Source: a virus
Reading direction: 5' to 3' (one strand)
Length of the DNA: 64,000 nucleotides
IMG/VR virus record: IMGVR_UViG_3300029999_000001
Coordinates: 3,557 to 67,556 of that record
Below are positions 9,296 through 47,384 of the stretch, piece after piece. Position numbers and translations under genes: made by a program. The notes under the pieces were generated by a model that was not told where the DNA came from, ran no database searches, and was given only the letters and a program-made list of their open reading frames with translations. Position 1 is the stretch's first letter. The number at the start of each line of letters is the position of its first letter.

Positions 9296-9320
9296 CCGCG
9301 CTGGCAGCGCCGTGATCGCT

Positions 9321-9563: not shown

Positions 9564-9589
9564 ACGCTCAGGATGCCAGCGGAGGGCAG

Positions 9590-10377: not shown

Positions 10378-10553
10378 CGTGATCGGCGCCTCCGCCGCTG
10401 GCCCACCGGGCCGCCCACACTGAGCCAGCCACGCCGGCCCACCCGCCTACCCGCCGACACCCACGGGCGGCCACGGCCATTCAACGGCACACTGCCCCGG
10501 ATGCGAATGCCGCCGACCCTGAACGAGTCGCTGATCCTGAGTCCCATTACCGG

Positions 10554-10718: not shown

Positions 10719-10894
10719 CAGCGCTCGTCGGGGATGAGGTCGCGCGTCGCGATCGTGGTGCGGTTGCCGTATGGCTTGTCCCAGCGCACGTCGACCACGA
10801 GGCCGAATCCGCCATTGTCCGGCAGGTATGGCCCGGCCACGATGGTGCCGCTGCGGTTGATCAAGGTGTTGTAGACGCGCTGCCCGACCTTCAT
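10718..10894 (-). CDS. Small beta-rich protein (58 aa)
   Basis: MKVGQRVYNTLINRSGTIV...VDVRWD...; GAGGGAG RBS; TGATG coupling to the RHH gene. Confidence 0.6.
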   Translation of the reverse strand: MKVGQRVYNTLINRSGTIVAGPYLPDNGGFGLVVDVRWDKPYGNRTTIATRDLIPDER

Positions 10895-10910
10895 TCCGTC
10901 TCCCTCGCTA

Positions 10911-10952
10911 GGTGGTAAGCACCACTCTAGCCAAGGTGCTAACCACCGTCAA
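10911..10952 (-). promoter_or_regulatory. Sigma70-type promoter with inverted operator pair
   Basis: Minus strand TTGACG-17-TAGAGT; GGTGGTAAGCACC (10911-10923) and GGTGCTAACCACC (10935-10947) flank the -10 box as an inverted repeat. Confidence 0.7.
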
Positions 10953-10972
10953 GCGACACACGGAGGTCAGCG

Positions 10973-16028: not shown

Positions 16029-17966
16029 ATGGCTAAGACGATCGCGACCGTCTCCGGTGTCGCTCTCGCACCCGGCGTGTCCAGGAACGGCCGGCTCTAC
16101 ACCCGCGAGGCCATCGCCAAAGCGATCGTGCGGGCACAGGGCCGTCTCGCCGATGGCGAAACAGTCGACTTGACCTATCGCGATGAGCCGATGACTCAGC
16201 TGACCCATCACGCGGCCGAGGATGACAGTTCGCGGATCGTCGGGCGGATCACCTCCCTGAGCCTCGGTGAAGACGGGAAGGCCCACTATTCGGCCGCCAT
16301 TGCGGACACGCCGCACGGGCACACCATCGCGAACTTGCTGGACACCAGCGACGGCCAGCCGCCGTTCCTCAAGGGTGTCTCGATCCGCGGTGCATGGCTA
16401 GGCAAGGTCCGCCGCATAAAGGGCCCGGACGGCTCAGCCGTAGAAACCGCCGATGACCTGGAACTCGATGGCCTGGACTACACCCGCAAGCCGGGTGTCC
16501 CTGGCGCGGGCGTTGAGACCTTCGCCTGGGCCAGGGACGGAGCCAATGAGACCACCGAGCGCGTGCTCATCACTGAAAGCGCGGAGGCGTGCGTGACAAC
16601 CCTCACCGAAGAGACCGCGCCGGTAAGCGAGGTCATGCCCGCAGACGTGCGGGAGGCGACGCGGGAACTGCTGCCGCTGGAGCGCCCGCACCTGCTCGCC
16701 AACGGCCTGTGCGAGACCTGCACGGAGATCGGCGAGGCCGCCACGGTCGCCCTGTCGAAACGCAGCGCCGGACTGCAGGGCAAGAGCGGCACCACCTACG
16801 CGGACCCCGGCTACCAGCCGGACAAGAAGCAGCGGTATGAGCTGGACACCAAAGCTCACGTCAGGGCCGCCTGGTCGTTCATCAGCCAGGCGAGCAACGC
16901 CAAGCTGTACACCCCCGCGCAGCTCAAGCGGATCAAGGGCCGGATCAAGGCCGCAGCCGGGAAGTTCGGCATCACGATCGCGACGGAAGGCTGGACGATC
17001 GACCCGGCTCTCCAGCTCACTGAGGCCGTGACCGAGTTCTACGGCGGTGACCCGGAAACCGCGGGCTCCTACACCCTCACCGCCTCCAACGGGCCGACCA
17101 CGGTCACCGTGTGCTCCTACGGCCTTGACCCCGCCGACCTCGCCGTGATCCTGCAGAAGGCCTGCGATGGTGCCGGAAGCGCGCTGGCGTCCCTGGACCC
17201 GGACATGGACGGCGACATTGACGTGCCCGGTGCGGACGCTGAGGACACCGACGGTGACATGAACGGTGACGGGATCGATGACCTCGCCACCCGGCTCGCC
17301 GCCGCATTCAAGGGCGAGTCCGGCGAGGATCCGAAGACGGTTCTCGCCGAGGCCTTCGCCAATCCCCCCGCGGCCGAGGCCGCACCCGCTGAACCCCCGG
17401 CGCCGGACGCCGGACCGCACACAGAAACGGAGGATCCCGCCATGGGCGAGACCACCACGCAGGAGGCGGTCGTGCAGGCCCCGGCCGCCGCACCCGCTGT
17501 CAGTGTCCCCGAGGATCTGGTCGCCAGGTACCAGAAGAAGCTGGCGAAGAAGGAAGCGAAGAAGCGGCTCGCCGCGGCCAAGCCGGCCGAGTCCGCCCCG
17601 GCCGCACCCGTCGCCGAGACCACCACCGAGACCGCCGATGAGCGGATCGCCCGCCTCGTTGAGGAGAAGGTCACCGCGAAGCTCGCGGAGACGGCCGTCA
17701 CCGAGACCGAGGACCAGCGCATCGAGCGGCTCGTCAGCGAACGGCTCGTGGCGGAGAAGCAGGGCGCTGTCGCTGGCGGTGGCGGCCCGGGACGCAAGGG
17801 CCTGGTCACCGAGCACACGGCTGCCCGCACGGGCGGTGAGATCCCCGAGGGCTACCCGATGAAAGACGGCGTGATGAAGCCGATGGAGCAGTGGACCGAG
17901 GATGAGCGCCGCGTCGCCGGCGCGGTCCTGCAGCAGCACGTCCTCGGCGACCGCGCCGTCTACTGA
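16029..17966 (+). CDS. Prohead protease-scaffold fusion with DUF6582-like domain
   Basis: SRNGRLY, His cluster and GVSIRG (compare T4 gp21 GVSSRG); central YADPGYQ.DKKQRYELDT..HVRAAWSFI; acidic coiled-coil C-terminus. Confidence 0.85.
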   Translation: MAKTIATVSGVALAPGVSRNGRLYTREAIAKAIVRAQGRLADGETVDLTYRDEPMTQLTHHAAEDDSSRIVGRITSLSLGEDGKAHYSAAIADTPHGHTIANLLDTSDGQPPFLKGVSIRGAWLGKVRRIKGPDGSAVETADDLELDGLDYTRKPGVPGAGVETFAWARDGANETTERVLITESAEACVTTLTEETAPVSEVMPADVREATRELLPLERPHLLANGLCETCTEIGEAATVALSKRSAGLQGKSGTTYADPGYQPDKKQRYELDTKAHVRAAWSFISQASNAKLYTPAQLKRIKGRIKAAAGKFGITIATEGWTIDPALQLTEAVTEFYGGDPETAGSYTLTASNGPTTVTVCSYGLDPADLAVILQKACDGAGSALASLDPDMDGDIDVPGADAEDTDGDMNGDGIDDLATRLAAAFKGESGEDPKTVLAEAFANPPAAEAAPAEPPAPDAGPHTETEDPAMGETTTQEAVVQAPAAAPAVSVPEDLVARYQKKLAKKEAKKRLAAAKPAESAPAAPVAETTTETADERIARLVEEKVTAKLAETAVTETEDQRIERLVSERLVAEKQGAVAGGGGPGRKGLVTEHTAARTGGEIPEGYPMKDGVMKPMEQWTEDERRVAGAVLQQHVLGDRAVY

Positions 17967-23929: not shown

Positions 23930-24358
23930 GTGGCATACGCCAACCGCGTCATCACGAAGCACTTCACTGAGCTTGTGGAGCCCGGCGATGACATCTGGGT
24001 GACCATCCGCAACCCGCAGCTCATGTCCCCCGGCGAGTTCACGTCCAGCGAGGCAGACCTGGAGACCGGGCCGGACGGGCAGCCGGTCGCGAACGAGGCG
24101 AACAAGCGGGCCGTGAACCGGCTCGGCGCCAAGCTGATCATCGGGATGCGGGTGTATGACCCGACCGCCCCGATCGAACTGGACGACCACGGCAACCCGC
24201 TGCCCACCGCAGAACCGGTGCTGCTGCCGGCCAAGCCGGCAGCCGAGGACGTCGCGAAGTTGCCGATGGGAATCATCAACTGGCTGGCTCAGGAGCTGGC
24301 CAGGGTAAACCCTCAGCAGACCCCGGAGAGCCCGGGGGCTACTGGGAATCCGTCCTAG
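23930..24358 (+). CDS. Tail assembly chaperone (G)
   Basis: Directly after the tail tube; slippery heptamer near the 3' end. Confidence 0.8.
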   Translation: MAYANRVITKHFTELVEPGDDIWVTIRNPQLMSPGEFTSSEADLETGPDGQPVANEANKRAVNRLGAKLIIGMRVYDPTAPIELDDHGNPLPTAEPVLLPAKPAAEDVAKLPMGIINWLAQELARVNPQQTPESPGATGNPS

Positions 24359-25070: not shown

Positions 25071-27827
25071 GTGGGCGTCATCCCGAGTCTCCCCCCGGTC
25101 GAGCAGGTCTTCACAGTCTCCGCCGGCGAGTTCATGGCCGGCATCAGCGAGATGCTGGAAGGGGTCGAAAAGCTAGCCGCCGGGATCGATGAGGTGGCAG
25201 CTGCGGCGGACCGGCTGAGCGCGGCCGCGGATGTGGCCGGGGAGGCTGACGACCGGCTCGCGGCGGGGATCGATGAAGTCGCCGCGTCCGCTGACCGGCT
25301 GGCCGTGGCCGCGGACATCGCCGCCGATGCTGACGAGCGGCTGTCGGCGGCGGAGCAGCTCGCGGCGATCGACGCGGAACGCCAGGCCGCCGCGGTTGAC
25401 GCGCTGGTCGCCTCGTGTGAGGAGACCGTCGCCGCAGTCGATGAGGCCACGGTTGCGATCGACCGGGAAACGGTCGCGCTGGAAGAATCCGGCGACGCCG
25501 CCAAAGACACCGGGGCGGAAGGCCTGGCCTTCGGCGGCATGATGAAGACTGCGCTGCTCGGGGTCGCTATCGCGGCCGGGATCGGGATCGAGCAGGCCGG
25601 GAAGTTCCAGCAGGGAATCACGCAGCTCCACACCCAGGCGGGGGTTGCCACCAGCCAGCTGGGCACCCTCAGCCAAGGGGTACTGAAGCTGGCGGGGGCG
25701 GTCGGGCAGGGCCCGGAGTCGCTGACCGAATCCCTGTACCACGTCGAAAGCAACATGGCGTCGCTGGGGATCTCCAGCGCGAAGGCCCTGAACATGGTTC
25801 AGGTCGCGGCCGAAGGCGCCGATGTGGGCCGCGCGTCCCTGGTCGACGTCACCAACGCCCTCACCGCCGCCGTCGCGTCCGGCATCCCCGGCGTACAGAA
25901 TTACCAGCAGGCAATGGGCGCCCTGAATGCCACCGTCGGTGCCGGTGACATGCAAATGCAAGACCTGGCCGACGCGATGGGCACTGGAATGCTCGCCGTC
26001 GTGAAAGGCTACGGCCTTTCATTGACCGATGTTGGCGCCGCGCTGGCGACATTTGGCGACAATAACATTAGAGGGGCTAAGGCAGGCACCGATTTGCGGA
26101 TGTCTGTGCAGGCCCTGGCTGTGCCGATGGCAACCGCAGGAGCGCAGCTCAGCGCACTGGGCATGAACAGCAAAACGCTCTCCACTGACATGGAGAACGG
26201 CGGGCTCATGAAAGCCCTAGACGACCTTACCAACCGGTTCCATAAAGCGGGAATAACCGCTAAAACCGAAGGTGAGGTAATCACCACCCTCTTTGGCAAG
26301 AAGGCCGGGGCGGGTGTGTCGATCCTGCTGGAGCAGATGAGCCGTCTCCAGTCCAAATACCCGCAGATCGAAAAGGCCGCTGGTGATTTCGGGAACGCCT
26401 GGCAGGGCCAGCAGAAGACTCTTTCCCAGCAGTGGGCCGACCTCAAAAACGGGGTGGACGCGCTTGCGATCTCGTTCGGGGAGAAGCTTCTGCCTGTGGC
26501 CACGAAGGTGGTCGGCGCGCTGGCTAAGTTTGCGAACTTCCTGGAGAAGAATCCGGCACTGGCTGCGTTCGCGGGGGCGCTCCTCGCGGTCGCAGCCGCG
26601 TTCAAACTCGTTGCTACCGCTGAGGCACTGTTCGACGCAGTCACCGATGCGAACCCGGTGATGCTGGTCCTCATGGCCGTGATCCTGCTTGCGGCCGGCC
26701 TGTACGAGCTGTACAAGCATTGCAAGCTGGTCCGGGATGCCGTGGCCGACGTCGGGAAGTTCTTCAAAGCCGCTGGCCACGACATAGCAGACGCCACCGA
26801 TGCTGTCCGGGAAACGGCCATACGGGCCGGTCACGACATAGAAGCAGCCTGGCATGACATAAAAAACGGCGTTGATGCTGTCCGGGAAACCTTCATCCGG
26901 GCCGGTCACGATATAGAGGCGGCCCTCAATGCGGTAGCGAAATGGATTTCCGGTCACTGGAAGGAAATCCTCGCCTGGCTGGTCGATCCGGTCGGCATGG
27001 CGGTCTTCGAAATCCGGACCCACACGCACGAAATCGCGCAGGCGTTCGATAAAATGCGTCATGATGTCGCCGCAATTCTTGACGACGCGCGCCACGACGT
27101 TTCCGCCGCATTCGATGATGTGCGCCATGATATCGCGGCATTCGCTGACTGGGTGCCGCGGGAAATAGAGGACGCCTGGGATACAGCCCGCCACGACACC
27201 ATGTCATTCCTCGATGGGCTGCGCCACGACATTTCCGCCGCGTTCGACTGGCTGGGCAGCACAACACGCTCGGTGATATCCGACGTGGTCGGCTTCTTTT
27301 CGAAGCTGCCGGGGGAGGCGCTACGTGAGCTGGAGGCCCTTCCCGGGCAGATGCTCACGGCCGGGAAGAACATTATCAACGGGCTGATTAATGGGATAAA
27401 GAACGCTGCGGCGGCCATTCCGGGCATTATGAAGGGCCTGGCGTCCGACGTGGAGAGCTACTTCACCGACCCGCTGAAGATGTTCTCCCCGTCGCGGGTG
27501 TTCTTCCAGCACGGCGTCAACACCCTCCAGGGGTACATCAACGGGCTGCGGTCGATGACCCCGCAGGTGCTTGCCGCGATGCACGAGATCGGCGGCCATG
27601 TCGCCAGCGGCGGGATCGGTGCTGCGGGCCTGGCCGTCGCCGGCGGCACTGCGGCCGGCGGGGGGACCGGGGGCGGGACGTCGATCGGGCCGATCACTCT
27701 GACCGTCAACGGGTTCGTCGGCAACCAGCAGGAACTGATGCAGCAGCTCTACTACCAGTTCCAGCAGATCGTGCTTCAGCAAAATCGGCGCAATAGCGTC
27801 AACGGCCTGTCCCTCACGCACCCGTAA
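25071..27827 (+). CDS. Tape measure protein (TP901-type core)
   Basis: 918 aa, Ala-rich; GAALATFGDNNIRGAKAGTDLR core; membrane segments; aromatic-spaced repeats. Confidence 0.95.
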   Translation: MGVIPSLPPVEQVFTVSAGEFMAGISEMLEGVEKLAAGIDEVAAAADRLSAAADVAGEADDRLAAGIDEVAASADRLAVAADIAADADERLSAAEQLAAIDAERQAAAVDALVASCEETVAAVDEATVAIDRETVALEESGDAAKDTGAEGLAFGGMMKTALLGVAIAAGIGIEQAGKFQQGITQLHTQAGVATSQLGTLSQGVLKLAGAVGQGPESLTESLYHVESNMASLGISSAKALNMVQVAAEGADVGRASLVDVTNALTAAVASGIPGVQNYQQAMGALNATVGAGDMQMQDLADAMGTGMLAVVKGYGLSLTDVGAALATFGDNNIRGAKAGTDLRMSVQALAVPMATAGAQLSALGMNSKTLSTDMENGGLMKALDDLTNRFHKAGITAKTEGEVITTLFGKKAGAGVSILLEQMSRLQSKYPQIEKAAGDFGNAWQGQQKTLSQQWADLKNGVDALAISFGEKLLPVATKVVGALAKFANFLEKNPALAAFAGALLAVAAAFKLVATAEALFDAVTDANPVMLVLMAVILLAAGLYELYKHCKLVRDAVADVGKFFKAAGHDIADATDAVRETAIRAGHDIEAAWHDIKNGVDAVRETFIRAGHDIEAALNAVAKWISGHWKEILAWLVDPVGMAVFEIRTHTHEIAQAFDKMRHDVAAILDDARHDVSAAFDDVRHDIAAFADWVPREIEDAWDTARHDTMSFLDGLRHDISAAFDWLGSTTRSVISDVVGFFSKLPGEALRELEALPGQMLTAGKNIINGLINGIKNAAAAIPGIMKGLASDVESYFTDPLKMFSPSRVFFQHGVNTLQGYINGLRSMTPQVLAAMHEIGGHVASGGIGAAGLAVAGGTAAGGGTGGGTSIGPITLTVNGFVGNQQELMQQLYYQFQQIVLQQNRRNSVNGLSLTHP

Positions 27828-33029: not shown

Positions 33030-34799
33030 ATGGCGATACCAGCGGACAGCCCGGGAGGGGCATCAAGCGCCTCCCAGTTCGCCGCGCTGCTCGCACAGAA
33101 ACCCGGCAGCAGCTACCAGGCGTTCGACCCGGCTCAATGGCGGCTGGCCCGCTTCTCGGCGCCGGGCCCAGCATCCGGCACCGCATCAGTCACCAACACC
33201 TACCCGGCCACCTATGAGGCCACCTACGGGACAACCGTTGACGTCCCCTCCGACACGGAGGCCTTCTGGGAGACGGTGGCCATGACCCGAAGCGCCTACC
33301 TCGACGGCGACGTCGAAATCAGCGGGAACCTCCAGGTCGACGGGACCAGCAACATCCCCGGGACGACCGACTGGACGGTGGTCGAGCCGTCAGGAGACAC
33401 GACCGGGGCGACGGACACGGCATCGATCCAGGCGGCGATCAACGCGGCCCCCGGCGGCGGGACAGTGTACCTGGAAACCGGGATCTTCTACACGAACGCA
33501 CCGATCGTGTTCGGGGCGAAAGTCGTGCTGCAAGGCTCGGACTCCTCATTCAACTGGGGGTCCTACAACGGCGGGTACGGGAACAGCGCGACCGCGCCGA
33601 CCGGCTTCCAGTCCACACCACCGACCCCGCCGTCCGGTGCGGTGATCAGGCCAGTCGCGGGCTGGGCGCAGGGGGCTGCGGTCGCCGCGGCGGTGCTGCT
33701 GTTCACCGCGCCGACCCACTACATCACTGAAGGCCCGGTCCTCCGCAACATCTGCGTCGACGGGGTCAGCCTGGTCGCGACCGCTGACGGGATTCAGGGG
33801 TACGGCGCGGTCGCCGACGTGATGATGACCAACGTCTACGTCATGCGGTGCACCGGGTGGGGCATCAACACCGCCGCCGACCCGTCCGCGCCGGCCGGGT
33901 ACTCGATCAACACGCCGGGGACGTGGAAAGTTCACCATTCCGAGGTGTGGAAATGCGCCGCGGGCGGCATCAACCTGAACTTCGTCTCCGACTCCGACTG
34001 GATCGATGTCCTTGTCGAAGGATGCAACGGCAACGGCTGGTCGATCACCTCCTGCGACAACTCCCACTGGATCGGCTGCCGTGCTGAATGGTCCAACGGG
34101 CACGGTTTCCACCTGACCGGCACCTGGCTGTCCGCCGCAGGGTACGGGGTCCTGCAATGCGTGTTCAGCGGGTGCACGACGGATGCGAACTTTGAGCACG
34201 GGTTCTTCATTGACGCGAGCACGGGCACGGCGGTTGTCGTGCTGGCGGGATGCTCGTTCCACCGGGACGGCAACAACGCGACCCCGGCGAGCTGGGCTGG
34301 GCTGGCGATCAGCCAGGCGGCGGCCGGGAACCTGCACTTCCAGGTGATCGTGCGGGGCCTGGTGACCTCCGCGACGACGGGCCAGGCTGGTGTCGGCCCC
34401 GCCTACGGGCTGTCCCTGGCCGGGACCGGTGTGTGGCTCGACATCGACGGCGCGAGGCTGATCGGCAACACGGGTGCCGTCCTGCTGTCCGGGACGCCCG
34501 CCCGCCTCCAGGTCGGCCCCGGCATGAGCTACGCGACCGGCGACTCGAGCGGGCCGGCGGTGGCAACCCCCGCGAACTGGAAGTCCGGCACGGCCACCCT
34601 CGCGGCGGGGACGGTCACCGTGGCGAACACGTGCGTGACCGCAGCGTCGCGGATCTGGCTGTCCGTGCTGACTCCGGGCGGAACGCCGGGAGCGCCGTAC
34701 GTCTCGGCGGTCACCGCAGGAACGAGTTTCACGATCAAATCGACGGCGGGTGCCTCCGATACGTCCGTGATCGCTTACCGGATGGATGAGCCGGGATGA
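33030..34799 (+). CDS. Tail spike/fibre with pectate-lyase-like beta-helix
   Basis: DTTGATDTASIQAAINAA...GTVYL.G.F entry motif; GCNGNGW/NGHGF helix coils. Confidence 0.8.
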   Translation: MAIPADSPGGASSASQFAALLAQKPGSSYQAFDPAQWRLARFSAPGPASGTASVTNTYPATYEATYGTTVDVPSDTEAFWETVAMTRSAYLDGDVEISGNLQVDGTSNIPGTTDWTVVEPSGDTTGATDTASIQAAINAAPGGGTVYLETGIFYTNAPIVFGAKVVLQGSDSSFNWGSYNGGYGNSATAPTGFQSTPPTPPSGAVIRPVAGWAQGAAVAAAVLLFTAPTHYITEGPVLRNICVDGVSLVATADGIQGYGAVADVMMTNVYVMRCTGWGINTAADPSAPAGYSINTPGTWKVHHSEVWKCAAGGINLNFVSDSDWIDVLVEGCNGNGWSITSCDNSHWIGCRAEWSNGHGFHLTGTWLSAAGYGVLQCVFSGCTTDANFEHGFFIDASTGTAVVVLAGCSFHRDGNNATPASWAGLAISQAAAGNLHFQVIVRGLVTSATTGQAGVGPAYGLSLAGTGVWLDIDGARLIGNTGAVLLSGTPARLQVGPGMSYATGDSSGPAVATPANWKSGTATLAAGTVTVANTCVTAASRIWLSVLTPGGTPGAPYVSAVTAGTSFTIKSTAGASDTSVIAYRMDEPG

Positions 34800-36520: not shown

Positions 36521-38059
36521 ATGACATCGCTCAGCTATGTCCAGATCACGGGCACGTTCGAAGATGGCACCGGCAGCCCGCTTACCGGGACGGTGACGTT
36601 CACCCCCTCGGCGACGGTGTACGCGGGCGGGGTGCCGGTCCTGGCCCCCGACGTCCCGATCCGCGCGCTGATCAACGCGGGGCAGCTCGGGAACCTGGCC
36701 GGCGGGACGCTGCAGCTGCTTGCCACCAATAATGCGGGCCTGACGATCGAGGGGCTGACCGGGTTCTGGTTCTGGACTGTGCAGGTCACCCTCGGCGGGC
36801 AAATCCAGGACCCGTGGTCGTTTTTCCTGCCATCATCCCCATCCACGGTTGACCTTTACAGCCTGGCGGACACTGCCGCCAGCGGTGGCGGAACCTCGGT
36901 CAACGGGCTGACCGGTGGCACGATCACCAGCTCCGTGGCGGTGACGGGGTCGCTGGGCACGACCCCGGTGACACTGACGGACGCGCCCACGATCACCGTC
37001 AACGCCGCGCTGTCCAATGTGCAGCGGGTCACGCTCGGCGGGAACCGCACGCTGGCCAGCCCCACGAAGCCCGCGGACGGGCAGCCGCTCACTTTCGAGG
37101 TGATCCAGCCGGCCTCAGGAGGCCCGTACACCCTGTCCTACGGCGCCGCGTATTCGTTCACGGCCAGCACGCCGCAGCCGTCCCTGTCCACTGCGGCCGG
37201 GGACCGGGACCTGATCTCGTTCCTGTACGACGCTGGCACAGCGCTATGGATCTGCACGGGCTACGTCCTGGCGCAAAACGGCGTGCTGGTGATGATCGCG
37301 CAGGGCGGCACCGGGGCGACCACCCAGCAGGGCGCGATCAACGCGCTGACCGGTGTGCAGACCGCCGGGCAGTACCTGCGGTCGAACGGCACGAACGCGG
37401 GGCTGAGCGCGCTCCTGGCGGCTGACCTGCCGTACGACACAACCGCCGCGCACATCCTCGGCGAAGGCACCCAGACCGCGGGCGGCAACGCTCAGCCCGC
37501 CGACTCCGGGCACATCCACCCGGCGAGCAGCATCGTGCCGTCTGATCATGGCCTGCTGGCCTGGTCGATGGACCTTGACTCGGCAGTCAGCGGGACGACG
37601 CTGATCGCGGGAACCGTGTACCTCGTCAAGGTCCCGATCCGGTACGCGCTGACCGCCACATACCTATGGTTCTCTCTCACCGTCGCCGGGGTCGGCACCT
37701 CGACGGGCAGCTACGTCGGCCTGTACTCAAGCGCCGGGTCTCTGCTGACCGGCTCGGCCGACCTGGGTACGGCTATCGCCATCGGTAACCATCAGGTCGC
37801 GCTAACGACGCCACAGGCCCTGACCGCCGGATCGTTCGTGTGGGCCGCGATGGTCACGAACCAGTCGAGCAGCCAGCCCGCGGTACGGTCCCCGTTCAAC
37901 TTCACCAGCCCCGCGTCGCCGAACATCGGCCTGACCGCCGCGACGTACCGGATAGCGGTTCCCGCTGGGGGCACTACTCAGACCGCCCTGCCCGGGTCGT
38001 TCACGCCCTCATCGAATACGAATACCGGCGCCGCGCAGCTCTGGTTCGGGATCTCCTGA
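36521..38059 (+). CDS. Tail-fibre-like protein
   Basis: N- and C-terminal modules shared with 45267..47384; IAQGGTGATT fibre motif. Confidence 0.7.
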   Translation: MTSLSYVQITGTFEDGTGSPLTGTVTFTPSATVYAGGVPVLAPDVPIRALINAGQLGNLAGGTLQLLATNNAGLTIEGLTGFWFWTVQVTLGGQIQDPWSFFLPSSPSTVDLYSLADTAASGGGTSVNGLTGGTITSSVAVTGSLGTTPVTLTDAPTITVNAALSNVQRVTLGGNRTLASPTKPADGQPLTFEVIQPASGGPYTLSYGAAYSFTASTPQPSLSTAAGDRDLISFLYDAGTALWICTGYVLAQNGVLVMIAQGGTGATTQQGAINALTGVQTAGQYLRSNGTNAGLSALLAADLPYDTTAAHILGEGTQTAGGNAQPADSGHIHPASSIVPSDHGLLAWSMDLDSAVSGTTLIAGTVYLVKVPIRYALTATYLWFSLTVAGVGTSTGSYVGLYSSAGSLLTGSADLGTAIAIGNHQVALTTPQALTAGSFVWAAMVTNQSSSQPAVRSPFNFTSPASPNIGLTAATYRIAVPAGGTTQTALPGSFTPSSNTNTGAAQLWFGIS

Positions 38060-40068
38060 TGGCGATCGACACGCAGCCGGTCCTGGCCAACAGCTTCGCG
38101 GGCGAGACGAACGGGGCGACGGTGGCCGCGTCGGCGTCGCCCGGGTATCAGTCGCTGGGGACCGCGGACGGGATGCTGTTCGACCTGGTGACGATATCCA
38201 GCGGCCAGGCGATGACGATTGATACCACAACCGCGCCTATCCCGATGGCGAAGATCGTCACGACTGCCACGACCACTTGCTATGGCGCCTGGCTGAACAG
38301 CGGCCTGCTGGTCAACGCCGCCGCCCAGCAGTGGTTTGAGCTGTTCCTGTACCAGACGGCGAACCCGTCCGCCGTGCACCAGGTGTTTGCGTTCGTGGTC
38401 TCCGGCACCCGCGCCGCGGACGTGGTGATCAACGCGAACGGCACGCTGAGCGTACGGAACACCAGCGGCAGCGTCATCGTGACCACGACGAACACGGTCC
38501 CGCTGAACCAGCTCTTCCGCATCGAGGGCTACGTCACATCGAGCGCCACTGTCGGCCAGGTGGAGCTGAAGCTGTTTAGCAGCCCCTGGTCGGCCACGCC
38601 CACCGAGACACAGACGTCCGGGGCGAATCAGAACACGCTCGGCGGCGTGCTGAATGCCGCCCGGTTCGGTGCGGCGACCGGCGCCGTGTCCGGGCTCACA
38701 TTCTGGCTCGGGCGCCCCGCGGTGTCGGTGTCCGGGTACATCGGCCCCGGCGCGATCGTGCAGCAGATGGTCTGCGGTGCCCCGACCCCGTCCGGCTTCA
38801 CGGTGATCAGCAAGCCGACCGGCGGGACTAGCCTGCGGCTGAAGCTGGCCACCAACTCAGGCATGACGCAGAACGTCTCCTACGTCGCGGCGCAGGCCCC
38901 GGACTCCTACGGCTACGTCAAGCATGTTGTGACCGGGCTCAGCCCGTTCACCCGCTACTGGTGCCAGCTCGCCGACACCCCGCCCGGCGGCACGGAGATG
39001 CTCGTCGGCAACGTGGGCACATGCAAGACGCTGGCCACGCCCGGCACCCCGCAGAGCTTCACGTTCGCCGTCGCCAGCTGCGTCAACACCGCCGACGAGA
39101 CGCCGGGCCCGGACACCGCCCTGAACGACTGGATCGCCTGGGGCGCCGACCTGAACATCTTCACGGGGGACTACAGCTACCAGAACCCCGCCTTCACCGA
39201 CCAGCCCAGCCAGATCGGCACCTGGGAGTACCAGACCTGGTTCTACGGCATGGAGCCGATCACCCGGCAGGCGTGGGGCTACTACCTCCGCTCCAACCAC
39301 GACAGCACGTCGGACACCTACTACTGCGACAGCGACAACACCTGGACCGCGGCGAACCTGGTGGCCGCGCAGGAGATCTTCCCCCAGGGGACGCTGGGCG
39401 ACACGGTGAACAGCCCCGTGCACGGCCTGTTCCAGACCTGGGTGACCGGCCGGGTCCGGTTCATCATGCTCGACATCCGCAACATAGACCGGTCCCCGGG
39501 AACGAACACCGACAACAGCTCCAAGACGATGCTCGGGCCGGCCCAGCTCGCATGGCTGCAGGCGCAGCTCATCCAGCCGGAACCACTGAAGATCATCGTG
39601 ACGGACACGCAATGGCTCGGCTCGACGGTCCCGTCGCTTGGCGTAGACGACGAGCTGGGCAAATGGTGGAGCTACCAGACCGAGCGGGCCTCGATCGTCA
39701 GCTACATGATCGAGTCGTGGTCCCGGATGCGGAACGTCGCCCTGATCCACGGCGACTTCCACGGTGTCGCTGTCGCCTACGCCTCCGAAAACGCGGCCTG
39801 GGGCGGGTTCCCGGTCTACGGTGCCGCCCCGATGCGGCAGACCGGCGCCTCAACCAACAACCCGAACACGTTCACCCGGTATTACAACAACAGCGGCGGG
39901 GAGTGCCGCCAGTACGGGCGGGTCACCGTCACGGACTCCGGCTCGGCGATCACCGTGAACTTCCAGGGCTGGGATGCGGTCAACCAGGTCGCGCAAGTCA
40001 GCCAGACCGACGTGTTCAGCGTCGCCGCCGGGAACGTGCCCGCCCGCGGCCTGATGGGAGCCTTGTGA
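38059..40068 (+). CDS. Lectin-like domain fused to a PhoD-like metallophosphoesterase
   Basis: VTGLSPFTRY (Fn3-like), FAVASC, FTGDYSY, SNHD, LDIR, TMLGPAQLAWL, HGDFH; no Tat or Sec signal. Confidence 0.85.
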   Translation: MAIDTQPVLANSFAGETNGATVAASASPGYQSLGTADGMLFDLVTISSGQAMTIDTTTAPIPMAKIVTTATTTCYGAWLNSGLLVNAAAQQWFELFLYQTANPSAVHQVFAFVVSGTRAADVVINANGTLSVRNTSGSVIVTTTNTVPLNQLFRIEGYVTSSATVGQVELKLFSSPWSATPTETQTSGANQNTLGGVLNAARFGAATGAVSGLTFWLGRPAVSVSGYIGPGAIVQQMVCGAPTPSGFTVISKPTGGTSLRLKLATNSGMTQNVSYVAAQAPDSYGYVKHVVTGLSPFTRYWCQLADTPPGGTEMLVGNVGTCKTLATPGTPQSFTFAVASCVNTADETPGPDTALNDWIAWGADLNIFTGDYSYQNPAFTDQPSQIGTWEYQTWFYGMEPITRQAWGYYLRSNHDSTSDTYYCDSDNTWTAANLVAAQEIFPQGTLGDTVNSPVHGLFQTWVTGRVRFIMLDIRNIDRSPGTNTDNSSKTMLGPAQLAWLQAQLIQPEPLKIIVTDTQWLGSTVPSLGVDDELGKWWSYQTERASIVSYMIESWSRMRNVALIHGDFHGVAVAYASENAAWGGFPVYGAAPMRQTGASTNNPNTFTRYYNNSGGECRQYGRVTVTDSGSAITVNFQGWDAVNQVAQVSQTDVFSVAAGNVPARGLMGAL

Positions 40069-40478
40069 ACCCGGAGTGGGTCGCCGCGCTCACCGCCTTC
40101 ACTGTCGCTGTCGTCACCGGTATGGCATGGGGGACCCGGCGGGCGTGGCACGCCACCCGCTGGCTGTGGCACATCGGCCGCCGCACCAGCCGCTTCCTCG
40201 ACGACTACTTCGGTGAACCGGCACGCGACGGTCTCCCAGCCAGGCCCGGCATCATGGGCCGCCTCAAATCCGTCGAGGATGCAGTTGGCCATGTCGCCAG
40301 CGAAATAGCCAAGGTCGCCGTAGAGACCATGCCGAACGACGGCACGTCAATGCATGACGTCCTGGCCCGCACTGAGCAGTCCGTGGACGAGATCAGGAGT
40401 GAGCAGGTGAAGATGCGGGCCCGGATGGAACTGTTCGAGACCCAGCGCGGCGAACGCGAGGACGAAGAGAGCCCGTGA
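40065..40478 (+). CDS. Membrane protein of the lysis region
   Basis: N-terminal TM helix; RFLDD.FGEPARDG.PARPGIM.RL then coiled coil. Confidence 0.7.
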   Translation: MNPEWVAALTAFTVAVVTGMAWGTRRAWHATRWLWHIGRRTSRFLDDYFGEPARDGLPARPGIMGRLKSVEDAVGHVASEIAKVAVETMPNDGTSMHDVLARTEQSVDEIRSEQVKMRARMELFETQRGEREDEESP

Positions 40479-40912
40479 GCGCCAGGCTGGCCCGCCCGGC
40501 GATCTTCGGTTTGGCCGACGGCATGATGAGCCTGCTCGGCGTGGTGCTGTACCTGCTCGGCCACGAGGCCCTGATCTTCCCGGCCGCGCTGTCCGGCGGC
40601 ATCTCAAGCGCGCTGTCCATGGCCGGCGGGGAATGGCTGTCCGACAGCGACAACGGTCTCGGCGCGTCCTGCGTGATGGGTGCGGCGACCGGGGTCGGTG
40701 CGATCCTCCCCGCCATCCCGTACGCCGTCACGAGCGGCACAACAGCGCTCGCCTGCTCCATCGTGATATGCGTCCTCATCGCCGCGGTCGTGGCCCTGAT
40801 GCGGCCCATGCGCAGCCAGACGCTGGCCTTCGCCGAGACATACGCGATCCTCGGTGCGATCTTCCTCGTCGTCCTGGCCTGCGGGCTGTTTTTGCCAGGA
40901 AGCGCAGCCTGA
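40475..40912 (+). CDS. Minimal VIT1/CCC1-family-like membrane protein
   Basis: IFGLADG, ALSGGISSALSMAGGEWLS and GAILPAIPY motifs; about five TM helices. Confidence 0.75.
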   Translation: MSARLARPAIFGLADGMMSLLGVVLYLLGHEALIFPAALSGGISSALSMAGGEWLSDSDNGLGASCVMGAATGVGAILPAIPYAVTSGTTALACSIVICVLIAAVVALMRPMRSQTLAFAETYAILGAIFLVVLACGLFLPGSAA

Positions 40913-41244
40913 TGTGGTGGTGGCACTGCTGGCTTCCGTTCCAGCACTGGCTCGCCATCCACACCGGCACCGACAACGAGGCCGCCGACTTCTACGGGTT
41001 CTTCTCGGGATTCGGCAGCGACATCGGTGAGGTCACGATCGTCGGCGGCCTGCTCGCCATCTACAAGAAGCACACCTGTCATCAGCGCTGGTGCTGGCGT
41101 TTCGGCCACTACGACTTCACCGACGAGGCGACGGGGCTCACCTACCGCCTGTGCCGCAAGTGTCATCCCGGGCATCCGGGCCGCCATCTTACGGGGCAGC
41201 ACATCGCCCGGATCCACGCCAGTAATCGCGGGAAGGAAACGTGA
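40912..41244 (+). CDS. His/Cys-rich small membrane protein
   Basis: TGATG coupling; MWWWHC...HTCHQRWCWRFGH...CRKCHP. Confidence 0.65.
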   Translation: MWWWHCWLPFQHWLAIHTGTDNEAADFYGFFSGFGSDIGEVTIVGGLLAIYKKHTCHQRWCWRFGHYDFTDEATGLTYRLCRKCHPGHPGRHLTGQHIARIHASNRGKET

Positions 41245-41248
41245 TCGA

Positions 41249-42193
41249 GTGACTCGTATGTTCCGCGCCGGCGGCCTTAATCGTGGCCCGGCCAGCGTCG
41301 GGGTCGTCTCCGCCGGGCCGGAAGTGCTCCTCGCGGACATCAGCGAGTATCAGGCCGACATCAACGATGCCCTCTACCTGCATTGGTCGCAGGCGGTGGT
41401 CATCCGCGCGCTGTTCGGTGACGCCCATGATGATGCCGCCTGGTACGGGGGCGCGCGGCGGACTGCGCTGCACGAGGGTGGCGCCCAGTTCCTCGGGATC
41501 TACCAGTACCTTGTGGCCGGGCAGGACGGGGCGGCGCAAGCCCAGGCGTTCCATCAGCTCGTCGGCGCCATCGAGGCCGGCGAGGTGTTCATCGCGGACT
41601 TCGAGGAAGGCGATCACGCGATGCTGACCGCCTGGTACAACGAGATGCTCTCGCTGCATGGGGAGGGGATCGGCCCGTACCTGTGGACCTACACCGGCCT
41701 GGACTTCGGGGAAGCCCTGGGGTTCCTGCCGGTCCAGTGGCTGGCCGGCTACACCGCCGACGAACCAGCCTCACCGCACACGCTGTGGCAGTTCACGAAC
41801 TCGTATCAGGTGCCCGGCGTGGGCGTGGCTGACTGCTCGGTCTTCCACGGGACCATCAGCGAGCTGGCGGCGCTCGCCTACGCCGTGCCGAAGGGCTGGA
41901 CGTTCCCGGCCCCCGGTGGCCTGCATCTGGTGAGGCAGACCCGCGAGGGCTACTCGTTCGCATGGGACGCGGTGACCGGCCCGGCCGGGCAGAAGCCGTC
42001 CGGGTACAGCGCCTTCACCTACAACGAGGCCGGGGACCTGGCGAACCATCAGGTTGTGACCGGCCTGAGCGCATCCGAGTACGGGCCCGCCGGGAAAGGC
42101 CTGCCCGCAGGGACGTACCGGACCAACGTGTGGGCCAACGGCGGCGAAGTTGGGCCAAGCCATGCCACCTTGACCGTCACCCTGACCCGCTAG
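41249..42193 (+). CDS. Endolysin, GH25 muramidase with C-terminal Fn3-like domain
   Basis: ADISEYQ, IADFE (DxE), LWQFT and ADCS GH25 motifs. Confidence 0.85.
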   Translation: MTRMFRAGGLNRGPASVGVVSAGPEVLLADISEYQADINDALYLHWSQAVVIRALFGDAHDDAAWYGGARRTALHEGGAQFLGIYQYLVAGQDGAAQAQAFHQLVGAIEAGEVFIADFEEGDHAMLTAWYNEMLSLHGEGIGPYLWTYTGLDFGEALGFLPVQWLAGYTADEPASPHTLWQFTNSYQVPGVGVADCSVFHGTISELAALAYAVPKGWTFPAPGGLHLVRQTREGYSFAWDAVTGPAGQKPSGYSAFTYNEAGDLANHQVVTGLSASEYGPAGKGLPAGTYRTNVWANGGEVGPSHATLTVTLTR

Positions 42194-43346: not shown

Positions 43347-45254
43347 GTGGGCTTCGGGACGCCGTACCTGATCGGCCACAGCACAGCCGGGTCAGGTCAG
43401 ACGCAGACCATCACCGCCGGCACGGCCACCAGCCCCGGCGACGCGATCATCGTCGCGCATTCGAGCTCGTCGACGAGCGGCGCGACGATCAGCAGCATGT
43501 CCGATTCGGCGGGCAACTCCTACAGCCGGATCATCCCCGCCGCGAACACGACCAACGAGTTCGGGGACCTGTGGGCGGCGCTGCCGCAGAACAACGGCGG
43601 CACCACCGCCGCGCTGACCACCAGTAACACGATCACCGTCAACTGGTCGACGTCGACCGGGGAGAAGCTCAGCGTCGCCGCCGGCGTCCCCGGCGTCAAC
43701 GTCACCTCGGCGGTGGACCAGGACCCGGCCCCAGGGCACGGCACCAGCACGTCGCCGACGGTCAGCACCAGCACGCTCGCCCAGTCCACTGAGATGGCGA
43801 TCGGTGTCCTGAACAACCCGGACACCGATGCGCCGAGCAGTGTCAACCTGACCCAGCTGACACAGCAGCAGTCCGCCACCAGCCCTTATGTGACGATCTG
43901 CTACGAGCAGACCAGCTCCACCACTGCGGTGACGTTCGGCGGTACGCTTCCCGCGAGCCTGAACTGGTGCGCGATGCTGGTCACACTGCTGCCCGCCGCG
44001 CCTGCCGTGACAGCGGCGGCACCTGCGCAGGTGCCGCCCCCGCGGCCGCGGGGCTCGAGCCGGGCGGTCATCCGCGGTCTCACTGTCGCCCCGCTCATCG
44101 CCGCTGCGCTGACCGGCGGCCACGCCTATCAGCGGGCCAGCCCGCCGCATCGCCTGGTGTGGCACGGCACGACCGTGACGACGGTCAACGTGAGCGGGCC
44201 GTCGGGGACGGTCCAGCCCCGCGCCACGATCCCTGTCCCGCGCCGGGCCGCGGCACGGGCGGTGTGGGCGCGGGAGACCGGGCCGGGGAACGCGCACGGC
44301 CCGTCAGGCATCCCGCCGCTCCCGCATCCTCAGCCACGCCGGCAGCCGGCGCGGGCAGTATGGCGGGGGACCGTCACCCGGGGCAGTAACGCCACCACGA
44401 TCGGCACGCCTGCACTGGTGTTCCCGCGGCAGCAGCCGCGGCGGCAGCCATCCCGGGCGGTGTGGCACGGCACCATCACCGCGGGCAGTAACGCTGCGGC
44501 GATCGGCACGCCTGCGGTGATACGGCCACCTGCCCCGCTGCGGCGGCAGCCGGCGCGGGCCCTGTGGCGGGGGATGACCGCTGCCGTACAGCACGGGGTT
44601 CCCGGCACCGGGAAGCTGCCGGCGGCCCGGCGCATCCCGGGCCGGGCGGTCTGGCGGGGGACGCTCACCCCCGGCACGGTCGCACCGGGCCCCGCACCGC
44701 GGCAGCGGCCACCCATCCCGCGCCGCACCCCCGTACGGGCTGTGTGGACCGGTATCCGTACGGCCACGGTCAACGCCCTGCCGGTTGCTGTCCCGCCACC
44801 AGCCCAGCGGCCCGCCATCCCGCGCCGCACCACTGCGCGGGCTGTGTGGGCGGGGACGATCACGCCGGGCACGCTGCGGGCGCCCGGGATAACCACGATC
44901 ACCGTCACCGGCACCTGCCTGGACTACCGGGGTGCCCCACTGCCAGGGCCGGTGGTGTTCGACCCGGGCGGGGTGATCATCGACGCGGCCGGCCGGGTGA
45001 TCCTGGGAGGCCCGGTCACCGTGCCCCTCTCCACGGCGGGAACGTTTTCGGTGGTCCTGCCATGCACCGACAACGCTGGTCTCAGCCCGGCCGGATGGCA
45101 GTACACGGTCAGCATCACGCTCACCGTCCCAGCAGCGGCCTGGACCCCGGCGACGCTGGTCCAGGACCTGCCGGTTCCCGTGCCGCCCGCCTCGTTCCGG
45201 ACCGGGCTGCCGTCCGCCCTCGGCCCGGCCACCGACCTCAGCGCACTCGTCTAA
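43347..45254 (+). CDS. Virion-like protein: beta domain, RRxPARAVWxG repeats, shared adaptor-like module
   Basis: Ser/Thr-rich N-domain; about nine Arg/Pro/Trp repeats; C-terminus homologous to the N-termini of 36521 and 45267. Confidence 0.75.
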   Translation: MGFGTPYLIGHSTAGSGQTQTITAGTATSPGDAIIVAHSSSSTSGATISSMSDSAGNSYSRIIPAANTTNEFGDLWAALPQNNGGTTAALTTSNTITVNWSTSTGEKLSVAAGVPGVNVTSAVDQDPAPGHGTSTSPTVSTSTLAQSTEMAIGVLNNPDTDAPSSVNLTQLTQQQSATSPYVTICYEQTSSTTAVTFGGTLPASLNWCAMLVTLLPAAPAVTAAAPAQVPPPRPRGSSRAVIRGLTVAPLIAAALTGGHAYQRASPPHRLVWHGTTVTTVNVSGPSGTVQPRATIPVPRRAAARAVWARETGPGNAHGPSGIPPLPHPQPRRQPARAVWRGTVTRGSNATTIGTPALVFPRQQPRRQPSRAVWHGTITAGSNAAAIGTPAVIRPPAPLRRQPARALWRGMTAAVQHGVPGTGKLPAARRIPGRAVWRGTLTPGTVAPGPAPRQRPPIPRRTPVRAVWTGIRTATVNALPVAVPPPAQRPAIPRRTTARAVWAGTITPGTLRAPGITTITVTGTCLDYRGAPLPGPVVFDPGGVIIDAAGRVILGGPVTVPLSTAGTFSVVLPCTDNAGLSPAGWQYTVSITLTVPAAAWTPATLVQDLPVPVPPASFRTGLPSALGPATDLSALV

Positions 45255-45266
45255 GGGAGGCCGGTC

Positions 45267-47384
45267 ATGCCGCTGCCCGGCGACCTGAACCTGATCACCG
45301 TCACCGGCACCTACCTGGACATGCAAGGCAACCCGCTGTCCGGGTCGGTCACCTTCACCCCGTCAACCGCGCCGCTCGCCGACACGACAGGGGAGGTGAC
45401 TCTCGCCGGGATCCCGGTCGCCGCCAGTCTGACGGCTGAAGGCACGATCAGCGTCGTACTGCCGTGCACCGACCAGATGCCCGCCGCCGGCTACTGGGTG
45501 TGGCAGGTCACCGAAAACATCACCGGCAGCCCGGCCCGCACCTACGGCATCGCCCTCCCGCATTCGCTCGGCTCCACCGTGGACCTGTCCACGCTGGCGC
45601 CTGTGACCCCGCCGGCCGCGTTCGCGTCACCGAACGTCTGGGCAGCCACCCAGACGTTCGGCGGGACCCCTGCGATCGTCGTGCCCGCAGGCGCCGGAAA
45701 CGGGTACATCTGGACGTCCGACGCTGACGGCAACGGCTCCTGGCAGCCAGCAGCCCCGCTGGCATGGGTCAACGTCAAATCCTATGGGGCCACCGGGAAC
45801 GGGGTCACCGACGACTCAGCCGCGATCCAGGACGCCATCAACGCAGCCAGCGCCGTCAGCGGGACGGTTTACTTCCCGGCCGGAACCTACTACTCGGCGG
45901 GCACCGCCCTGACGGTCACCGCGCCGATCCGGCTCACCGGCACCTCCGCCTCAGTGCTCTTGTTCGCCAGCTCCGGCGGCATCAACTTCAGTAACACCTA
46001 CATTTCCGCCGGCAGTTTCAACAACGGCGGCACGGTGGGCCTGGAAATCGATCACCTGGTGTTCGACGTGACCGGCGGGGACATCTTCTACAACTGCAAC
46101 TGGAACAACTTCAGCCTGCATGACCTGCGGCTGATCCAGCGCAGCGCCGGGCATGCGGTGTGGTCCTGCTCGGGCAGCGTCAGCCTGCTCGCCGGGCTCG
46201 TGTCCAACGTTGTCTCCAACGTCGCCGGGACAGGCCGGACGGTCCCCGGCTGGAACCTGGTCTCGTCCATCGGCGGCGGCATCGCCCTGCTGACCTTCCT
46301 CAACTGCCACTTCGGGAACCTCAGCCACGACAATGCCCAGCCTGCCGTGTGGATCGAATGCAACGGCACCCACAACTACACCGCGAGCATCAAATGGGTG
46401 GGCTGCACGTGGGACTCGGCTTACGGCGGGGCGGTGCACGCCCTGTCGGCCAAATACTGGTCGTTCGACACATGCGAGATCATCGACACCAGCACGTACA
46501 CCGTCGCGGCGAGCATGTTCTACCTCGGGGCCAGCACCGGCGGCTCCCAGTGGCCATCCGATCACGTCACCTTCCGGGACTGCTCCCGTGACCTGCAAGG
46601 ACCCAACGGCTCGTCCTACTGGGACATCTACTGCGAATCCACCTGCGACACCATCACCGTCGCCAGCTACGGTGTCCGCGACATTCCCGGCGTGTCAATC
46701 TTCTACCCGTACTTCAACTTCAGCGGCTGCACGAACGTTCTCATCGAGAACTGCCCGGGCGCCGTGGTCACCAGCGCTCCCAGCTCGGGGGTGACGCTCG
46801 GGCCGGGCGGGAACATCTCCTACACCGGGACGCTGGCCGGTGCGGCATTCCCGGACACGACTCTCCCGGGCGACCTCGGGTTCCAGGCGTGGACGTCCGA
46901 CCCAGCCGAAGCATCCGGTGGCGGCACGCTCGCGGTGGGCGGCACGGTCTACCTCGCCGCCATATACACGCGCGGCAGCATCACCATCAACTACCTGTAC
47001 TTCTCGCTGACCAACGCCGCTTCCGGTGCGGTCTCCGGGGAGAACTACATCGGGATCTACAGCTCATCAGGCACCCTGCTCGGCTCGGTGGAGGTGACGT
47101 CGGCTCTCGGGACCACCGACAAGATGATCAAGGCGACGCTCTCGTCGTCTCTGACCCTCAGCGCGGGCTACTACTGGGTCGCTGTCGTGTTCAACGCCTC
47201 CACCACCGAGCCGCAGCTCATGCGCGCGAACAACACCAACTTCGGTGTCTACAACGGTGAGCTCGGAACCTCATCCCTCCGGTACACGTCGAACGGGACC
47301 GGTCAGACCTCGCTGCCGTCATCGATCACCCCGTCGGGCAACAGCACGACCACCGGCATCCCGTTCTGGGCAGCGGCCGGCTAG
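45267..47384 (+). CDS. Tail spike with pectate-lyase-like beta-helix
   Basis: WVNVKSYGATGNGVTDDSAAIQDAINAA...VYFPAGTY. Confidence 0.85.
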   Translation: MPLPGDLNLITVTGTYLDMQGNPLSGSVTFTPSTAPLADTTGEVTLAGIPVAASLTAEGTISVVLPCTDQMPAAGYWVWQVTENITGSPARTYGIALPHSLGSTVDLSTLAPVTPPAAFASPNVWAATQTFGGTPAIVVPAGAGNGYIWTSDADGNGSWQPAAPLAWVNVKSYGATGNGVTDDSAAIQDAINAASAVSGTVYFPAGTYYSAGTALTVTAPIRLTGTSASVLLFASSGGINFSNTYISAGSFNNGGTVGLEIDHLVFDVTGGDIFYNCNWNNFSLHDLRLIQRSAGHAVWSCSGSVSLLAGLVSNVVSNVAGTGRTVPGWNLVSSIGGGIALLTFLNCHFGNLSHDNAQPAVWIECNGTHNYTASIKWVGCTWDSAYGGAVHALSAKYWSFDTCEIIDTSTYTVAASMFYLGASTGGSQWPSDHVTFRDCSRDLQGPNGSSYWDIYCESTCDTITVASYGVRDIPGVSIFYPYFNFSGCTNVLIENCPGAVVTSAPSSGVTLGPGGNISYTGTLAGAAFPDTTLPGDLGFQAWTSDPAEASGGGTLAVGGTVYLAAIYTRGSITINYLYFSLTNAASGAVSGENYIGIYSSSGTLLGSVEVTSALGTTDKMIKATLSSSLTLSAGYYWVAVVFNASTTEPQLMRANNTNFGVYNGELGTSSLRYTSNGTGQTSLPSSITPSGNSTTTGIPFWAAAG

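Follow-up and report, generated by a model that had tools for sequence, protein, structure and literature searches.

A 64,000-nucleotide stretch of DNA from an uncultured soil phage (positions 3,557 to 67,556 of IMG/VR virus record IMGVR_UViG_3300029999_000001; hereafter the window) encodes, at 38059-40068 on the + strand, a PhoD-like protein of 669 amino acids (aa), P0001, in which a PhoD-family enzyme module that carries no signal peptide is joined to an N-terminal domain of lectin fold. The virus record as a whole is 100,323 bp long and is rated complete by CheckV, and the G+C content of the window is 67%. The gene is defined by its open reading frame (ORF) and translation, by matches to Pfam PhoD and PHROG 13624, and by an AlphaFold2 (AF2) model in which three domains can be distinguished. 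Its ATG at 38059 has one base in common with the TGA (38057-38059) of an upstream fibre-like gene (36521-38059, + strand, 512 aa), which agrees with the coupling to a fibre gene described in an earlier note on this DNA, and at its other end the sequence GTGA holds both its own stop codon TGA and the GTG (40065) with which a 137-aa holin-like gene begins. A longer reading of 742 aa from the in-frame GTG at 37840 was dropped because all 35 homologues begin at the position equivalent to the ATG and share the same M-A...QPVL N-terminus. Also dropped was a 505-aa ORF (38961-40478) from the mechanical ORF list, of which only the last 137 codons, from the GTG at 40065 on, correspond to the holin-like gene.

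The lack of a secretion signal, also claimed in the earlier note, is upheld: the first 40 residues, inspected without a dedicated predictor, show neither an RR motif of the twin-arginine translocation (Tat) type nor a basic n-region or a hydrophobic core, and residues 9-11 already form a strand of the N-terminal sandwich in the AF2 model.

The PhoD identity of the protein, which had been read from a full series of motifs, is supported by Pfam, by a profile match to a known structure and by the AF2 model with Foldseek. Pfam PhoD (PF09423) is matched with 41.3 bits (cut-off 27, E = 1.4e-10), with only positions 146-271 of the 343 profile positions covered, and the PhoD_N match of the query is weak (16 bits, cut-off 30), with homologues reaching up to 26.7 bits. 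PHROG 13624 ("hydrolase") is matched at 3.6e-58 and PHROG 24476 ("phosphodiesterase") is also matched; an NCBIfam search of the protein gave no match. A profile of the 35 homologues matches the structure of Bacillus subtilis PhoD (2YEQ) at E = 6.8e-12 over residues 289-568, with all of the motifs aligned. This structure was reached only with the profile; a search of the PDB with the single sequence gave only chance matches to haemagglutinin (E = 0.017).

The AF2 model, which was built with the 35-homologue metagenomic alignment, has for the full-length protein a predicted local distance difference test score (pLDDT) of 88.9 and a predicted template modelling score (pTM) of 0.90, and consists of three parts. 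The first (residues 1-232, 38059-38754, + strand) is a ConA-like jelly-roll of lectin or lyase-like type, recognised with VIA-align, which is all-beta and reaches a pLDDT of 92.9 when folded alone, so that the N-terminal beta-sandwich of ~230 aa proposed earlier stands. The second (residues 233-323, 38755-39027, + strand) is an Fn3-like PhoD_N domain, indicated by the weak Pfam match, by a beta sandwich in the model and by its position inside the Foldseek alignment to 2YEQ. The third (residues 334-655, 39058-40023, + strand) is the PhoD-type metallophosphoesterase core, an alpha/beta sandwich that is assigned from the 2YEQ alignment, Foldseek and conservation counts. Foldseek places 2yeq_A first (E = 4.3e-20 over 490 columns, TM to target 0.61) and plant purple acid phosphatases next, at ~1e-14.

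The metal site can be compared with that of 2YEQ residue by residue, using the numbering and roles given for the latter enzyme (PMC4223295). The complete Fe3+ ligand set of PhoD (Cys180, Asp207, Tyr210 and His438 with the bridging Asp436) is present, as C341 corresponds to C180 (motif S340-C341), D371 and Y374 to D207 and Y210 (motif G370-D371-x-x-Y374), and D566 and H568 to D436 and H438 (motif H564-G-D566-x-H568). The core also contains the motif L-D472-x-R474, and D516 and H564 are listed among its residues as well. The remainder of the site is altered: S412-N413-H414-D415 aligns with D265-D266-H267-E268, so that the all-aspartate CaA site (D265/D266) is here S412 and N413, and the CaB ligands Asn271 and Asn272 are replaced by S418 and D419. 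The replacement of the usual DDHE by SNHD, which had been noticed before, is therefore genuine, but Asn is the minority form of the clade. Among ~195 relatives the motif is SDHD in 99, SDHE in 42, SNHD in 31 and DDHD in 5, giving S-[D/N]-H-[D/E] as the clade hallmark; position 412 is Ser in 183/195, and position 413 in this wider family is Asp in 156 and Asn in 36 (of 195). More distant relatives (27-33% identity) keep DDHDFGPN[DN]S. Positions 418 and 419 are variable among the ~195 relatives and in the query fall inside the loop of lowest model confidence (418-423). By contrast with these positions, C341, D371, Y374, H568 and D566 are invariant in the 35 homologues and present in at least 188 of the 195 relatives, and D472, R474, D516 and H414 are also invariant or near-invariant among the latter.

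From this pattern, the iron site and one neighbouring metal site have probably been retained and the third metal (CaB) lost, and the centre would thus contain two metals rather than three. The exchange D265A abolishes the activity of B. subtilis PhoD (PMC4223295), so that the Ser seen across the family sets this centre truly apart from that of PhoD; because of this Ser and the loss of the equivalents of N271/N272, the chemistry may differ from that of PhoD. The strong conservation of the Fe-site and other core residues in ~195 relatives nevertheless argues for retained catalysis, and on this basis the enzyme is predicted to be active. The codon of residue 413 lies at 39295-39297 of the window, and the ratio of Asn to Asp at this residue is 19:16 in close homologues and 36:156 in the wider family. 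Asn at this position is as in purple acid phosphatases and Asp is as in PhoD, and their alternation suggests repeated switching of metal preference.

The N-terminal domain gave no match in a Pfam search, and its profile matched only Cip1 in the PDB, at an E-value of 0.023 that is not significant. With VIA-align, domain 1-232 is closest to the polysaccharide lyases PL14 (5gmt) and PL20 (2zzj), both at Z = 17.4, followed by TtX122A (17.1) and Cip1 (16.6), while phage matches appear at Z ~13.6 (J-1 Dit CBM2, the TM4 gp23 receptor-binding domain and the Douge baseplate). Among viral models, the best match is a 260-aa "hydrolase" from Microbacterium phage Shocker, with a template modelling (TM) score of 0.76. 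Hence the lectin-like domain of the earlier note is correct as to its ConA-like jelly-roll fold, but its structurally nearest neighbours are jelly-roll polysaccharide lyases of families PL14 and PL20 and Cip1. Catalysis in lyases of PL7, PL14 and PL20 relies on conserved Tyr/His/Lys residues, with Arg/Gln, in the cleft. Among the polar residues of domain 1-232, W78, R94, R154, E156 and E183 are invariant, and no Tyr, His, Lys or Gln was found to be so. To judge from its structural neighbours, the jelly-roll may have a second catalytic activity, that of a lyase. It is a mobile module by its distribution in sequences, since P0069 (two copies), P0071, P0074 and P0075 have it but lack a PhoD part. 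P0071 (L006:8872-10746, 624 aa), whose N-terminal jelly-roll is 38% identical to that of the window and which has no PhoD part, is encoded between capsid and tail-tube genes, and its C-terminal 400 residues have no family match.

In the window, the PhoD-like gene closes a tail-tip block that starts with the tape measure (25071-27827, + strand; PHROG to 1.3e-39, Pfam PhageMin_Tail). Just upstream of the tape measure, at 24158-24247 (-), ARAGORN reports a "tRNA-???" with a two-base anticodon that is probably a false positive. The tape measure is followed by a 1043-aa protein with profile matches to Laminin_G_3, CBM_4_9 and PHROG 5313, by smaller tail genes, and by a beta-helix tailspike (33030-34799) with a C-terminal K1-lyase_C domain (PF24146, 79 bits), which is probably an autochaperone-type end on a depolymerase. 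The same C-terminal stretch of the spike also matches PHROG 24355, which bears the automatic name polysaccharide deacetylase. A 528-aa protein is encoded between the spike and the 512-aa fibre-like gene, whose stop overlaps the PhoD start and which is a conserved upstream neighbour of PhoD. The C-terminal module of the fibre-like protein matches minor tail proteins of Streptomyces phages with 33-38% identity and also the spike at 45267, and the protein has modules in common with the products of the genes at 45267 and 43347; it is itself modular, with residues 140-310 and 337-512 kept independently in different relatives. No strong + strand terminator was found between 33030 and 42710, and the tail-module location given in the earlier note is sound, the PhoD-like gene being the last of a run from tape measure through the PHROG 5313 protein, spikes and fibre to PhoD. 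A predicted complex of fibre residues 140-512 with PhoD residues 1-330 scored 0.00, which speaks neither for nor against binding.

Downstream lies a lysis cassette (40065-42193) that is situated inside the fibre region. It begins with the holin-like gene (40065-40478, + strand, 137 aa), whose product has an N-terminal transmembrane helix and a coiled coil and matches PHROG 9869 (2.3e-16) and PHROG 15431 "holin" (5.6e-7). Then come a VIT1-like multi-pass membrane protein (40475-40912, + strand), identified from its ORF and from an L008 homologue with Pfam VIT1, a small His/Cys-rich ORF, and a GH25 endolysin (41027-42193, + strand; Pfam Glyco_hydro_25 28.9 bits, PHROG 291). Fibre or spike genes at 43347-45254 and 45267-47384 follow the endolysin.

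A first search found 77 homologues of the PhoD-like protein, all metagenomic, and an exhaustive search gave 1946 representatives at E <= 1e-3 and 230 (clusters at 50% identity) at E <= 1e-30, many of them 1000-2000 aa long. In some relatives the PhoD part stands alone (447-451 aa) and in others it is placed behind other N-terminal domains; by this distribution, both the jelly-roll and the PhoD halves are mobile. A homologue of the fibre gene is found directly upstream of PhoD in seven lineages in which PhoD identity is 49-83% (L022/23, L024, L026/27, L028, L008/29 and L036 are recorded with this arrangement), while the gene downstream of PhoD varies: a spike in L022 and L008, a holin in the window and a GH25 gene in L002, a prophage where PhoD closes the tail block. 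L008 has, in this order, a tape measure, a 423-aa fibre-like gene, PhoD, a 504-aa gene, a 1106-aa PHROG 5313 protein and a 382-aa gene, with overlapping starts and stops, and in L028 a 943-aa ORF of tape-measure size (not profiled) precedes the fibre-like gene and PhoD. The fibre-like version that directly follows the tape measure in L008, and the tape-measure-sized gene in L028, is a shorter one. In L036, a fibre-like frame (8208-9344) overlaps the start of a 751-aa PhoD ORF (9089-11344) by ~255 nt in another frame, an overlap that may stem from a frameshift or an assembly error, or may reflect recoding that fuses fibre and PhoD.

Proteins of 1261-1603 aa, encoded upstream of tail genes in L030-L035, carry the PhoD module internally (L030:8492-12277, L031:8672-12664, L033:6611-11107, L034:8378-12943 and L035:8462-13273). 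In L030, where marker genes were checked, the giant protein has an HK97-type capsid gene on one side and the tape measure on the other. The remaining ~800-1100 residues of these proteins have no Pfam match.

No near-identical DNA was found in cultured phages, neither the endolysin nor an ORF at 16029-17966 (645 aa) has more than remote relatives in culture, and relatives gave no reading of the host. In bacterial genomes, the close relatives found by a scan were confined to short contigs of metagenome-assembled genomes binned as Silvibacterium, Saccharimonadales and Patescibacteria, which are unreliable for the host. The YchF protein that flanks prophage L002 is 65-72% identical to those of the best large Actinomycetota genomes sampled, a value that, in a comparison comprising Actinomycetota only, is compatible with an actinobacterial host. 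WhiB is encoded in the related temperate phage L009, and was looked for but not found in the genome of the present phage. Indirect hints, namely the likeness of the fibre tip and the PhoD part to those of Streptomyces phages, the high G+C content and the WhiB of L009, point towards a Gram-positive, probably actinobacterial host.

The interpretation that we favor, with a probability of slightly more than one half (about 0.55), is that the protein is a PhoD-family phosphodiesterase, predicted to be catalytically competent, which is made late together with the tail fibres and most likely rides on the virion, in the fibre region of the tail, as an accessory enzyme that cuts phosphodiester-linked polymers of the host surface. 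We infer both the attachment to the virion and the substrate. The ConA-like domain would bind a glycan of the host surface, or help to mount the protein on the particle, and the Fn3-like domain would serve as a spacer. The PhoD core, with a tyrosinate/cysteine-ligated Fe3+ (C341, D371, Y374 and H568) and one divalent metal (D371, N413 and D566), would hydrolyze the phosphodiester bonds of a phosphate-linked wall polymer, for which teichoic-acid-type and sugar-1-phosphate polymers are candidates. Such cleavage would open a path for the fibres and the tail tip, in the manner of the GDPD domains on the baseplates of staphylococcal and enterococcal phages. The earlier note had likewise proposed a virion enzyme that strips teichoic acid or other phosphodiester-linked glycopolymers, as opposed to a phosphate gene. 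The virion enzyme is favored by the gene context, the fibre pairing and a particle proteome described below, but teichoic acid can be retained just as one candidate among phosphodiester-linked polymers, because the host is only indirectly hinted.

The proteome is that of the cyanobacterial phage YongM, whose homologue of the window protein shows 28% identity along the entire PhoD core (E = 1e-28). According to the published account (PMC8875764), this homologue was 7th by score in liquid chromatography-tandem mass spectrometry of concentrated phage (score 1132, 35% coverage), ranking among capsid, sheath, tube and fibre proteins, where replication enzymes scored ~19 (e.g., DNA polymerase, 19), and its three operon neighbours were detected too. 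Because the preparation, as far as that account tells, was not gradient-purified, this is suggestive but not proof.

Several points weigh against a virion enzyme of this kind. The Asp265 that is essential in PhoD is Ser here and N271/N272 have no conserved equivalents; no recognizable baseplate-attachment or trimerizing domain was found in the PhoD-like protein; and a teichoic-type substrate is assumed to exist in the host. The gene is coupled to the holin-like gene as tightly as to the fibre gene, and in L002 it adjoins the endolysin gene. Mass spectrometry of virions of Thermobifida phage P1312 missed the homologue ORF22, although the neighbouring tail protein ORF21 was missed as well (PMC4569894). 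In Anabaena phages, phoD was found to be very highly expressed, which was read as phosphate acquisition (2026 preprint, 10.64898/2026.02.14.705889), and in the Streptomyces BK cluster the homologue Jay2Jay gp121 is encoded among tRNA genes, outside the tail block.

The coupling to the holin-like gene would fit with a soluble late lysis enzyme that, somewhat like lysin B of mycobacteriophages, leaves the cell through the holin lesion with the GH25 endolysin and then cuts wall polymers or linkage units, or strips receptors from debris. In the window, the overlap of the PhoD stop with the holin-like start is followed by the VIT1-like protein and the GH25 endolysin, in prophage L002 the GH25 gene comes immediately after PhoD, and enzymes that depend on a holin for lysis typically lack a signal peptide, as this protein does. 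Its closeness to lysis genes, however, is not conserved. By tblastn, the VIT1-like protein is matched in L022, L028 and L008 outside the neighbourhood of PhoD, with the gene 8-9 kb upstream of PhoD in L008/L029 and L028 (8 kb in L008) and ~4.5 kb downstream, behind a spike gene, in L022/23. The pairing of fibre and PhoD is in contrast conserved, and in other phages the module is embedded in the 1261-1603-aa structural-module proteins. The adjacency also weighs little because further fibre and spike genes follow the endolysin, and we therefore regard a lysis enzyme as an unlikely explanation, although one that deserves to be kept in mind.

It is improbable that the gene is an auxiliary metabolic gene, whose product would, when phosphate is limiting, release it from organic phosphate esters to feed the synthesis of phage DNA. 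Membership of the PhoD family, the phosphate-acquisition reading of phoD expression in the Anabaena phages (10.64898/2026.02.14.705889) and the position of the BK-cluster homologue outside an obvious tail block are all in keeping with such a role. Yet characterized PhoD enzymes are extracytoplasmic, while the present protein has no export signal; it is fused to a domain of glycan-binding type and related to internal domains of giant structural-module proteins, and its gene lies among tail genes, to which it is coupled, next to a fibre gene in a pairing that is conserved. The YongM homologue is abundant in the particle preparation (PMC8875764), and the Anabaena preprint itself reports that phoD is fixed beside neck-fibre genes and that the phage carrying it does worse, not better, without phosphate (10.64898/2026.02.14.705889). 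It is the module identity, the tail run, the fibre pairing, the tail contexts of relatives and the YongM proteome together that favor a virion enzyme over a phosphate gene.

A receptor binder with no catalysis or altered chemistry, in which the PhoD fold serves as a binding head for phosphate polymers or acts like a phospholipase D on membrane lipids, would suit the Ser at the D265 equivalent in 183/195 relatives, the lost CaB ligands, the alternation of Asn and Asp at position 413 and the precedent of Streptomyces chromofuscus phospholipase D, a PhoD-family member that acts on phospholipids (PMC4223295), but it too has little probability, as C341, D371, Y374, H568, D566, H414, D472 and R474 are near-invariant, as for an active rather than a decayed metal centre, and no sequence sign of lipid binding was found.

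A broader and more tentative generalization can be offered, for which the odds are rather against than for: PhoD modules with the derived site (Ser for Asp265, CaB lost, probably binuclear) may form a large class of virion depolymerases of phosphodiester polymers in soil and freshwater phages, shuffled among fibres, tail-tip proteins and giant neck or head-fibre proteins, with swappable jelly-rolls that set the glycan specificity or are themselves lyases. To our knowledge, nearly all of the phage depolymerases studied to date are glycosidases, lyases or esterases. The known virion-placed phosphodiesterases have so far been only of the GDPD fold, and the PhoD fold would, if the interpretation is true, represent a second, independent phage route through phosphate-linked wall polymers. 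It would also provide specific enzymes for dissecting actinobacterial wall glycopolymers and correct the habit of labelling phage phoD genes as phosphate auxiliary genes. The copy in the window shows the three domains cleanly and has a fibre gene as its conserved partner.

Among known systems, the structurally closest is B. subtilis PhoD, a Tat substrate. This Fe3+/2Ca2+ phosphodiesterase (2YEQ), for which the legend of Fig. 4 of the structure paper indicates a signal peptide (PMC4223295), has been described as an endolytic teichoicase that cuts glycosylated wall teichoic acid (PMC7086022). The two proteins have in common the Fn3-like N-domain and metallophosphatase core, the same Cys/Asp/Tyr/His iron ligands and the GDxxY, LDxR and GDxH motifs, and by analogy a phosphodiester-polymer substrate is plausible for the window protein too. 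The latter, however, is only ~16% identical to PhoD and has neither the signal peptide nor the C-terminal capping helix; D265 is changed to Ser and D266 to Asn (Asp in most relatives), N271/N272 are not kept, an additional 232-aa ConA-like domain is present, and the gene lies in a phage tail module. With plant and mammalian purple acid phosphatases, a tyrosinate-Fe site is shared and, in this particular protein, the Asn of GNH(D/E). Their seven-ligand set (DxG / GDxxY / GNH(D/E) / VxxH / GHxH) is nonetheless absent, since the first Fe-ligand Asp is Cys341 and the first His of GHxH is Asp566, and the Asn is not conserved in the clade.

In phages, homologous PhoD modules are those of PHROG 13624, of PHROG 24476 (P1312 ORF22) and of the Streptomyces BK-cluster "hydrolase / purple acid phosphatase" (Jay2Jay gp121), all from actinophages and 26-33% identical to the window protein in the PhoD part only. 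As the family is already catalogued (PHROG 13624), the window protein is a further member of an uncharacterized phage family, and no biochemical assay of any phage PhoD-type protein was found in the literature. P1312 ORF22 (1096 aa) is encoded after the tape measure and a tail protein; unlike the window protein, it has its PhoD module N-terminal, a C-terminal CBM_4_9 and a predicted signal peptide. Its authors raised the hydrolysis of teichoic-acid phosphodiesters as one possible role in 2015 (PMC4569894). The "alkaline phosphatase D" proteins of Nostoc phage YongM and Anabaena phage Elbi, encoded beside neck or capsid fibre genes, belong to a small cluster of structural genes. YongM is a myovirus of a cyanobacterium, and its homologue differs from the window protein in its canonical DDHD, its N-terminal PhoD part and a C-terminal extension of ~260 aa in place of the N-terminal lectin domain.

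A functional parallel would be provided by the GDPD phosphodiesterase domains (GlpQ-like, PF03009) of staphylococcal and enterococcal phage tail proteins, which occur in tail modules and in the central spike of phage 812 (PMC10194240, PMC13433997). These are unrelated TIM barrels with two-His chemistry; the window protein has no match to Pfam GDPD at E <= 1, and its model is a metallophosphatase sandwich, not a barrel. It would thus be an analogue of the GDPD enzymes and not a member of their family, with the same proposed job of a virion phosphodiesterase acting on teichoic acids.

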